Below, piece after piece: positions 4,776 through 6,741 of a stretch of DNA of 64,000 nt. The DNA comes from Patescibacteria group bacterium. Its GTDB lineage: Bacteria > Patescibacteriota > Microgenomatia > Levybacterales > GWA1-39-11. Under the pieces are notes generated by a model. The model did no database searches and was not told where the DNA came from. It worked only from the letters and a program-made list of their open reading frames with translations. A program made the position numbers and the translations under genes. Numbering within the stretch: the stretch's first letter is position 1; each line of letters starts with the position of its first letter. The stretch covers positions 10,374-74,373 of the forward strand of contig DASZRC010000003.1 in NCBI GenBank assembly GCA_035549315.1, in the 5' to 3' direction.

Positions 4776-5570
4776 ATGAAAAAACTTTCTCTATTTTTAT
4801 CAATATCTATTTTATTTTTGGGATTTGTTAACAATGCTTTTGCCGCTACCCCTACCCCTGCTCCAACAACAAAAGTCTCTCCTACAAAAGCGCCGGTTGT
4901 AACTCAAGAAGAAAACCAGATTGAAAAGATTAAGGATTTAGTTGCTTCAAAGGTTGCAGAGCTTAATCTTGTTGATAAAAGAGGCTTGATTGGAAAAGTT
5001 AAAACAACATCCACCACTCAGGTAACAATAACTGATGATAAGAACCAAGAACGCCAAATTGATATTGATGAATTAACAAAGTTTGAGAGTGATGATACCA
5101 AAGACGATTCTTTTGGAATTTCTGATATCAAAAGCGGGGATGCTCTTTCTTTTGTTGGGCTTTTTAATAAAGAGACTAAGAGACTTTTGGCACGTTTTGT
5201 CTCCAGAGCCAAAAATATTCCTGAAAACATTGAAGGAATAGTTCTTGCTAAGGACGATAAAAATTACACCTTTGATCTTGCTACTGAAGACGGCAAGAAG
5301 TACACAATAAATGTTGAGACCTCAACAAAAACATCAACAATTGAAGACGGAGATCTTACAAAAGCCGGTTATTCAAAAATTGAAGAACAACAAAGAGTAA
5401 TGGTTGTAGGTTTTGCTGACCCAGACAAAAAAGGTGAAATTAACGCATCTAGAATATTGATCCTTCCGGTTCCACCAAGTGATGAAATGAAAAAACAACT
5501 CACAGCAAGTGACGATGAGATACCAACTTCAACAGGATCCGCGGGAAAAGTAAAACCAATAGTTAAATAA
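4776..5570 (+). CDS. Secreted hypothetical protein; start moved to the internal ATG ahead of the signal peptide
   Basis: MKKLSLFLSISILFLGFVNNAFA is a classic signal peptide, followed by a PT-rich linker. The upstream ORF extension overlaps the previous gene. Confidence 0.55.
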   Translation: MKKLSLFLSISILFLGFVNNAFAATPTPAPTTKVSPTKAPVVTQEENQIEKIKDLVASKVAELNLVDKRGLIGKVKTTSTTQVTITDDKNQERQIDIDELTKFESDDTKDDSFGISDIKSGDALSFVGLFNKETKRLLARFVSRAKNIPENIEGIVLAKDDKNYTFDLATEDGKKYTINVETSTKTSTIEDGDLTKAGYSKIEEQQRVMVVGFADPDKKGEINASRILILPVPPSDEMKKQLTASDDEIPTSTGSAGKVKPIVK

Positions 5571-6741
5571 CTTCTTTTGCTTCGTAATTTCTAAGTGTTT
5601 CAAATAAAGATACACCCGCCTCCATTAAATAAAGCGGAGAACAAGTTTTAAGATGGTCGGCTAAATCTTTTATACCGGGAATTTTTTTCAACTCATCCTC
5701 ATCATCTAAAGCTTTTATGTATCCATCTATCTCTTCATCAAAGAAAGTGTGATAAGTACCCTCCGATTCTTCTTCATCCATACCGTTTGCTTCCACCTCA
5801 ACAATCAAATCACTATATCTTTTAACTTTAGCGACTTGCTCAAAAGACAGCCCCATTTTTTCACCTACTCGATTCATGGTCGTGACAGCAGAAGCATCTA
5901 TAATCTCCATTCTTTTATAAACATCTTCGTCTTCTCTTTCGCCATTACCGCTTACATATCTTATTGTGTGAGCAAGATCTGGTCTTCTTTTCCATAATAC
6001 AAGCATTAAATCTTCTGATGTTCTCCCATTAGCCTCATAAAATGGATGAATTAGCGCATAGATCGTTTGGAAAGCAGAGAGATATAAATATATATTCTCT
6101 TCATTTACTTTTTGATTAATTGATCCTTTCGGGAAAAGTTCTTCTGCTTTAGCAGCAAGCTTCTGTAACAACTCTGGTGTTTTTTCCTTTGATACACACT
6201 CAACTAATCCACCGGCAAGACCGATATCCAAATTAAGATCATCCGCAGACCTTACCTTACCGGCCAATCTGTCAACATGTTTTGCATCTCGAACAAGTCT
6301 ACGAGCCTGTCCGCGAGTAAGAATTACATGCTCACGTCCTTTCATGTGCGCTCTATGAATTAATCTCATTTGAGTATAGATAGATAAACCATGCTCATCG
6401 TATTTATCCAACAACTCACCGCGAATTATATCAGAACTTCTTATTCTCTCGCCTGTAGCTATTTCTTCTCTATCTTTTGAACTCTTTTGCATAGTCCAGC
6501 CTAATCTGTCCATAAGCGGAGCATTTCTTTTAGGCTCTGGGGCATCGGCAGAAGCAAGAAATCCTAATGGATCTCCCAAAACTTGGGCTTTCATATTTAA
6601 CACAAGATCTTCATATGCTTGTTCTGTTACGGGTTCGTTGCCGGACGGCAATAACCAACCGGCTACATAATCATTCTCAATTTTCCTAAAACCTTTTTTA
6701 ACCAAACGGTCTTCTGGTGTTCTACCGATACTCTCAGTCAT
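5563..6741 (-). CDS. Fic/Doc family protein with a non-canonical Fic motif
   Basis: HPFYEANGRTSE aligns to the Fic motif HPFx[DE]GNGRxxR, but with G replaced by A and the last R replaced by E. The DANGR variant resembles AnkX-type enzymes. Confidence 0.7.
   Translation of the reverse strand: MTESIGRTPEDRLVKKGFRKIENDYVAGWLLPSGNEPVTEQAYEDLVLNMKAQVLGDPLGFLASADAPEPKRNAPLMDRLGWTMQKSSKDREEIATGERIRSSDIIRGELLDKYDEHGLSIYTQMRLIHRAHMKGREHVILTRGQARRLVRDAKHVDRLAGKVRSADDLNLDIGLAGGLVECVSKEKTPELLQKLAAKAEELFPKGSINQKVNEENIYLYLSAFQTIYALIHPFYEANGRTSEDLMLVLWKRRPDLAHTIRYVSGNGEREDEDVYKRMEIIDASAVTTMNRVGEKMGLSFEQVAKVKRYSDLIVEVEANGMDEEESEGTYHTFFDEEIDGYIKALDDEDELKKIPGIKDLADHLKTCSPLYLMEAGVSLFETLRNYEAKEVI

Follow-up and report, generated by a model that had tools for sequence, protein, structure and literature searches.

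Can a Fic active site in which the second motif arginine has been exchanged for an acidic residue still belong to a working enzyme, and if so, to what kind of enzyme? The question is raised by one gene in a stretch of 64,000 nucleotides from a Patescibacteria group bacterium (GenBank assembly GCA_035549315.1, contig DASZRC010000003.1, positions 10,374 to 74,373 of the forward strand), which we call the window. According to the listing of open reading frames (ORFs) of the window, a single ORF at 5563..6741 on the minus strand encodes a protein of 392 amino acids with an ATG start, and its translation carries YALIHPFYEANGRTSEDLML, which includes H232 to D244. A first-pass annotation described it as a Fic protein with an AnkX-like active-site motif and without an evident inhibitory helix or antitoxin partner. 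The active-site signature is the basis for sorting Fic enzymes, and whenever a deviation from it has been studied, a new chemistry has come to light. Counting motif positions from the histidine, Doc, with a lysine at position 8, is a kinase, and AnkX, with an alanine at position 6 and a valine at position 12, transfers phosphocholine.

Judged from its sequence, the ORF is a genuine gene for an unusual Fic-fold protein of a very small, undescribed subfamily. We favour, with modest confidence, the reading that the product is a stand-alone, catalytically active enzyme with an altered leaving-group pocket, outside the scheme of class I to III Fic proteins. The motif is not a chance match: it is invariant among the family members, and homologues are found at E values down to 1e-76. 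An NCBI entry, 'hypothetical protein VG917_00385 [Patescibacteria group bacterium]', is 100% identical to the protein, which is located on an 82-kb contig of assembly GCA_964585445.1. The composition is native, with a uniform GC content of 0.36-0.40.

The Fic fold and the catalytic loop

Taken as a single sequence, the protein gives weak evidence for a Fic assignment. The Pfam Fic family (PF02661) aligns residues 168-243 with model positions 28-86 of 93 at 20.7 bits, below the gathering score of 24. A search of NCBIfam gave no match, phmmer against the PDB sequences gave nothing meaningful, and PHROGs gave nothing significant. PADLOC gave only weak matches of the motif region, to PDC-S04 and SoFic, and the Foldseek matches in PDB and BFVD are weak. 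Some relatives pass the PF02661 cut-off (P0019 with 25.3, P0020 with 26.3 and P0047 with 31), 44 of 46 relatives have a Pfam Fic match at E <= 1, and one relative already bears the NCBI name 'Fic family protein'.

The profile comparisons point more clearly to the active site. In the profile of 18 homologues, 'liHPFYEaNgRTSEDlm' pairs with 'YIHPFIDGNGRTSRLLM' of FICD. Comparing the 46-sequence family alignment with an alignment of FICD by hhalign gave a probability of 95.5% over 215 columns; the FICD sequence used here is 100% identical to PDB 6i7g. In the well-aligned part, AGKVRS pairs with AGRFRT of FICD, the predicted hairpin at about 174-181 pairs with the FICD flap (the whole segment 161-186 with AGRFRTTQVLVGHHIPP), and H232...E243 pairs with H363...R374. 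E243 therefore stands where FICD has R(2), the second arginine of the motif. The N-terminal part of this alignment has near-zero confidence, and against the lone FICD sequence the alignment is restricted to the motif. Residues 232-244 read HPFYEANGRTSED, as a check of the codons by hand showed, and HP[FLMW] occurs only once in the 392 residues, at this loop.

The AlphaFold2 (AF2) model has a mean predicted local distance difference test score (pLDDT) of 82.5 and a predicted template modelling score of 0.79. It places a helix-loop-helix at the motif, with helices at 217-231 and 235-251, in agreement with the alpha-helical fold of the Fic/Fido superfamily, in which the active-site loop joins alpha4 to alpha5. 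Strands are predicted at about 174-181, directly after AGKVRS, and the flap is thus a prediction of the model. Fic chains in the PDB align over 148-185 of the 392 residues, and the C-terminal region gets no name from them. The figures listed per Fic-fold protein are 14.6 for VbhT, 14.1 for Bep8, 13.9 for BT_2513, 13.3 for NmFic, EcFicT and FICD, 11.0 for SoFic, 10.5 for AvrB, 10.1 and 8.5 for AnkX, and 7.6 for Doc; as a structural neighbour, AnkX is weaker than the generic Fic proteins. Both the alignments and the predicted structure indicate that the protein has a Fic fold and that the motif stretch is its catalytic loop, as the first-pass annotation had proposed. Neither a true Fic motif elsewhere in the protein nor any sign that this stretch is something other than the catalytic loop was found.

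Conservation in the family and the inhibitory site

The family consists of 18 clusters among 5.8 billion proteins. A profile search of 1.84 billion representatives returned 51 sequences at E <= 0.001, including 35 at E <= 1e-30, and among the 51 the motif is canonical in P0056 alone (HPFYDGNGRTARG). Among 185,579 species genomes, with one genome per species, three loci were found, in metagenome-assembled genomes (MAGs) labelled Daviesbacteria, Microgenomates and 'uncultured Gammaproteobacteria'. The family is mostly from Microgenomates/Patescibacteria, and the names given by the sources of the relatives include Roizmanbacteria.

We counted the residues at each motif position in the 50 family members with the loop. 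The first two positions, H and P, are found in 50/50, F at position 3 in 47, an acidic residue at position 5 in 48 (E 43, D 5), N at position 7 in 42, G at position 8 in 47 and R at position 9 in 49. At position 6 the 50 members have A (28), R (10), G (7), C (3), S (1) or V (1). At the end of the loop, S at position 11 and E at position 12 are present in 50/50, followed at position 13 by D (41) or E (8), i.e. an acidic residue in 49/50. At position 12, arginine is found in 120 of 120 FICD orthologues versus glutamate in all 50 family members. H232, F234, E236, N238, G239 and R240 are invariant among the 18 closest relatives. The protein of the window has lost both Gly(1), here A237, and the second arginine, here E243, as first noted. 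On these counts, the hallmark of the family is the change of R(2) to Glu followed by an acidic residue rather than the Gly-to-Ala change, because position 6 varies (A/R/G/C/S/V).

The conservation extends beyond the loop. In 46 sequences D104, Q225, S242 and L364 are invariant, and R269, R277 and Y330 nearly so. Q225 (DNA 6067-6069, minus strand) is Gln in 46/46 at the -7 position, where Fic domains usually have His, as in 'AHYKLVYIHPF' of FICD. In the alignment of the 18 closest relatives, G161 and R164 of the GxxR motif are invariant. The core contains IHRAH (127-131) and a family-specific segment, GREH...QARRLV (135-150), in a region that is about 18 residues longer than its FICD counterpart. 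Before the core, the helix 76-85 has the family pattern PLxxRLxW and the helix 88-116 the pattern EAxRRRxxSTDxIRxxLL. The C-terminal 120 or so residues form a confident family-specific helical bundle (pLDDT 93-98), with R277, Y330 and L364 conserved and an LAxNL helix at 357-365. About 60 N-terminal residues are unconserved, and the pLDDT is below 50 at residues 1-38, 50-55 and 57-61. Four relatives from metagenomic contigs (P0019-P0022, 892-920 amino acids) carry about 570 extra N-terminal residues with no Pfam match, an extension that may be a targeting or regulatory module.

As the first reading of the locus had stated, an inhibitory helix is not evident. The motif [ST]xxxE[GN] is absent from the protein and from the small ORFs within 4000-8500, where the sole in-frame match lies inside cysS. 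In the relatives it occurs at scattered, non-homologous sites only, with no conserved motif in the family. Neither Fic_N nor any other domain was matched by Pfam in the 46 relatives. The gene is flanked by a spacer of 37 nt between its ATG and the end of cysS and by an overlap of 8 nt at its stop, and there is therefore no room for an adjacent small gene. Across nine contexts of family members, no conserved neighbour or small partner gene was found, and the neighbours are housekeeping genes (purB, cysS, dnaB, dnaA, yidC, pheST, ribosomal proteins).

None of the three classes of Fic proteins describes this arrangement. Class I has an adjacent small gene with the [ST]xxxE[GN] helix, which is lacking here. 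Classes II and III have an intramolecular inhibitory helix (alpha-inh) whose Glu pairs with Arg(2), and here the pairing partner itself is absent.

Three candidates for a substitute of the inhibitory Glu were tried and rejected. A charge swap at K134 (RAHMKG in place of xxxxEG, compare 'AATLEG' in P0056 and 'SAHTEG' in P0030) falls on the ordinary 'lH..lfeG' end of alpha2, which is not alpha-inh, and P0017, P0018 and P0030 have Glu there yet keep E243. A class III-like helix at the C-terminus would start from 'LAENL', which yields [ST]xxxEN in P0013, P0015 and P0022. The Glu column of 'LA[E/D]NL' is E/D/Q/K/A/L in the family and D-H in the protein studied here, i.e. there is no conserved inhibitory Glu. 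R107 is invariant among the 18 closest relatives and lies 125 residues from the His, like E73-H198 of SoFic, but its internal spacing is unlike that of FICD and distant members have H, Q or K, which leaves it as a lead only. In the low-confidence stretch of the hhalign alignment, TVAIE234G of FICD falls on residues 93-98, where the family consensus is basic ('EAxRRR'), and SEIR of FICD falls on D104..R107. Because this alignment puts the alpha-inh of FICD on the basic residues 93-98, the helix 88-116 could act as a lid, with its basic residues facing the acidic E243 and D244.

Possible chemistry of the altered pocket

AMPylating Fic enzymes use the His to deprotonate the target hydroxyl and the motif Asp or Glu to bind Mg2+; the alpha- and beta-phosphates are held by the loop amides together with R(1). 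Through its gamma-phosphate, held by R(2), the nucleotide has its alpha-phosphate oriented for in-line attack. The inhibitory Glu takes the same gamma-phosphate site and pairs with R(2) (PMC3667792, PMC12409994), and it also activates the water for deAMPylation (PMC6408439).

The family has kept the catalytic His, the metal-binding Glu, the Asn, the phosphate nest of Gly-Arg(1), the GxxR motif and the predicted flap. This strictly conserved machinery for the alpha-phosphate argues for an active enzyme, and since the inhibitory salt bridge has neither of its partners here, the protein would fall outside class I-III autoinhibition. In the reading that we modestly favour, the enzyme would modify a hydroxyl of a protein side chain in the usual manner: assisted by the His, the hydroxyl would attack in line a phosphodiester or phosphoanhydride that sits in the alpha/beta-phosphate nest. 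The leaving-group pocket would be acidic instead of basic and would disfavour a free gamma-phosphate, which makes it unlikely that ATP binds in the canonical, AMPylation-competent way. The donor might instead be linked through a diphosphate, a terminal phosphate might be held by a metal or a different Arg, or the action might be hydrolytic and remove a group. If active, the clade would illustrate how a Fic site can function with neither half of the Glu-Arg regulatory switch, and it would extend the short list of enzymatic post-translational modifiers known in Patescibacteria.

Two observations speak against this interpretation. Some non-catalytic Fic scaffolds also conserve their catalytic residues. 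Further, the loss of Arg(2) alone leaves AMP transfer possible: the FICD variants R374H and R374C remain able to AMPylate, with autoinhibition and deAMPylation both lost (PMC12974487). The earlier proposal that the loss of the second Arg marks enzymes which transfer groups other than AMP is therefore overstated.

The same FICD variants favour an ordinary nucleoside monophosphate transferase (AMPylator or UMPylator), which would still use a nucleoside triphosphate and be unregulated or newly regulated. Its terminal phosphate would be held by a family-specific Arg of another element, namely R79, R99/R107 of the long N-terminal helix or R269/R277; alternatively, E243 and D244 would bridge a second metal that holds it. 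All the machinery for the alpha- and beta-phosphates is kept, and further conserved arginines are at hand in R269 and R277 (46 sequences), R107 (18 closest relatives) and the 'EAxRRR' consensus. However, a conserved acidic pair at the gamma-phosphate site (50/50 and 49/50) differs from a change to His or Cys, and these arginines would have to reach that site. We consider this explanation unlikely but not negligible; should the clade do no more than AMPylate, it would count as another divergent Fic protein.

A bolder version of the favoured interpretation would make the 'HPFxE[A/G]NGRTSE[D/E]' proteins a functionally new Fic class. The basic site of gamma-phosphate and alpha-inh would be inverted to an acidic pocket, possibly with a charge-swapped lid ('EAxRRR...STDxIR'). 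The donor would have a cationic or metal-bound leaving group (CDP-choline, CDP-ethanolamine, NAD-like), or the enzyme would be a dedicated hydrolase, and in episymbiotic Patescibacteria it might act on translation or cell-envelope proteins of the host or of the cell itself. We offer this as speculation and regard it as quite doubtful.

A dedicated removing enzyme, deAMPylase or phosphodiesterase, with the Glu built into the loop itself appears highly improbable, and we know of no precedent for such an in-loop Glu. An AMPylation-competent contact to the gamma-phosphate cannot form in this pocket, which fits a removing action, but E243 sits on a different backbone element with a shorter reach than the Glu of alpha-inh, and no cognate AMPylator is encoded nearby. 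DeAMPylation by FICD and EfFIC needs the His, the motif Glu or Asp and a Glu at the Arg(2) site (PMC6408439, PMC12974487), and the family has all three kinds of residue.

Even less probable is an AnkX-like transferase of phosphocholine or another phospho-group, using a CDP-linked donor in inverted orientation and delivered to a host as an effector. The AnkX signature, HxFxDANGRxxV (PMC3667792), was given correctly in the first-pass annotation, and the protein resembles it in the Ala at position 6 and in lacking Arg at position 12; the acidic residues 243 and 244 could favour a cationic head group. However, the family varies at position 6, and at position 12 it has Glu, which is not a neutral residue, compared with Val in AnkX. 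Pfam does not detect a CMP-binding domain, the AnkX insert or ankyrin repeats. For the suggested host-directed effector we found no direct support: the protein has no signal peptide or transmembrane segment, and its gene has no secretion-system or mobile-element context. The idea is compatible with a family that is sporadic in its distribution and variable and disordered at its N-terminus, in a phylum of episymbiotic lifestyle.

Least probable of all is a non-catalytic scaffold or the toxin of a degenerate toxin-antitoxin pair: some Fic-fold proteins such as AvrB act without catalysis (PMC4177925) and the similarity to Pfam Fic is weak, but about 50 diverged sequences strictly conserve the catalytic His and the phosphate nest, and the neighbours are housekeeping genes, none of them antitoxin-sized.

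Gene neighbourhood and relation to known Fic systems

The features of the gene are collected in Table 1. The predicted promoter fills the spacer between cysS and the Fic gene, with 6 nt between the end of its -10 box and the ATG. No Shine-Dalgarno sequence is found upstream of this ATG, and the mRNA is therefore probably leaderless. By these signals, the gene is probably expressed alone, from its own promoter.

Table 1. Positions in the window of the predicted promoter, the Fic-fold gene and the segments of its product.
Feature	Position	Strand	Basis
Sigma-70-like promoter TTGACC-17 nt-TATAAT, 11/12 consensus	6748..6776	-	Consensus scan; sequence match only
Complete ORF, divergent Fic-fold protein, 392 amino acids	5563..6741	-	ORF list; NCBI identity; AF2 model
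N-terminal residues 1-61, low confidence, non-conserved, length varies	6559..6741	-	pLDDT; alignment of 18 closest relatives
Residues 76-116, helix 76-85 and long helix 88-116, candidate active-site lid	6394..6516	-	Conservation; AF2 model
Residues 117-271, Fic core, helices alpha2-alpha6	5929..6393	-	
Residues 161-186, AGKVRS (GxxR motif) then predicted beta-hairpin flap	6184..6261	-	Conservation; AF2 strands; FICD alignment
Active-site loop H232-P-F-Y-E-A-N-G-R-T-S-E243-D244	6010..6048	-	ORF, codons, profile, family counts
Residues 272-384, alpha7 and family-specific C-terminal helical bundle	5590..5928	-	AF2 pLDDT; conservation

At its 3' end the gene overlaps the convergent ORF 4719-5570 (plus strand) by 8 nt, 5563-5570. 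No terminator was found between the two, and the sole terminator-like hairpin (5615-5638, minus strand) is inside the Fic coding region. The ORF 4719-5570 and the adjacent 4349-4774 (plus strand) each have a hydrophobic N-terminal stretch; one of the two matches Glucodextran_B/Big_6 Ig-like domains, while ORF 4719-5570 has a weak DUF5666 match. Their products are possibly secreted or membrane-anchored. As annotated, these two ORFs overlap by 56 nt, and 4719-5570 therefore probably starts at a later Met.

Directly upstream of the Fic gene is cysS (6779-8164, minus strand). The same gene is found three genes upstream of the relative P0010 (locus L005, 1728-2921) and is absent from the other seven contexts. 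Being present in two of nine contexts only, it is likely a coincidence in small genomes. Small GIY-YIG genes (78-90 amino acids) lie a few kb from family members (L001 5688-5939, L005 1151-1423, L010 16297-16533). One is directly upstream in the Daviesbacteria locus, and none adjoins the Fic gene of the window; the recurrence is probably a common feature of Patescibacteria rather than a sign of a partner. A relative with 36% identity is located between dnaA and yidC in the MAG labelled 'uncultured Gammaproteobacteria' (L009 5767-6915), so that either the family occurs, rarely, outside Patescibacteria or the contig was mis-binned. An ORF of 99 amino acids that overlaps the start of this relative matches no Pfam family and lacks the inhibitory motif. 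The gene of the window is in neither a defence-island nor a phage context.

A full-text literature search for the motif strings of the family gave no relevant paper, and none was found that joins Fic, Patescibacteria and AMPylation. Five groups of Fic/Doc motifs were catalogued in 2015, and GNGRxxE is not among them (PMC4454073).

Compared with Doc, the kinase toxin of phage P1 with the motif Hxxx[D/E]GNKRxx[!R], the protein has the Fido fold and the lack of Arg(2) in common, and it lacks the other features of Doc, i.e. Lys at position 8, absence of a flap and a Phd antitoxin. With AnkX it shares the Fic fold, Ala at position 6 and a residue other than Arg at position 12, and it differs in Glu at position 12 and in Glu instead of Asp at position 5. 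In AnkX the CMP-binding domain, the insert and the ankyrin repeats create an inverted binding of CDP-choline (PMC4177925, PMC4454073); none of these parts is detected here, nor is there a type IV secretion context.

A third comparison is with the canonical AMPylating enzymes, which have the motif HxFx[D/E]GNGRxxR: VbhT/FicT in class I, FICD and SoFic in class II and NmFic in class III. The protein differs from them in A237 and E243, without Gly(1) and Arg(2), and the family in the invariant Glu followed by Asp or Glu at the place of Arg(2), in Gly(1), which is usually Ala, and in Gln for the usual His at -7. The family also has no [ST]xxxE[GN] helix and no antitoxin, about 18 extra residues between alpha2 and GxxR, and its own C-terminal helical bundle; the similarity of the protein is under the Pfam threshold. 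Common to both are the helix-loop-helix site with His, Phe, Glu, Asn, Gly and Arg(1), the GxxR motif and the predicted beta-hairpin flap.

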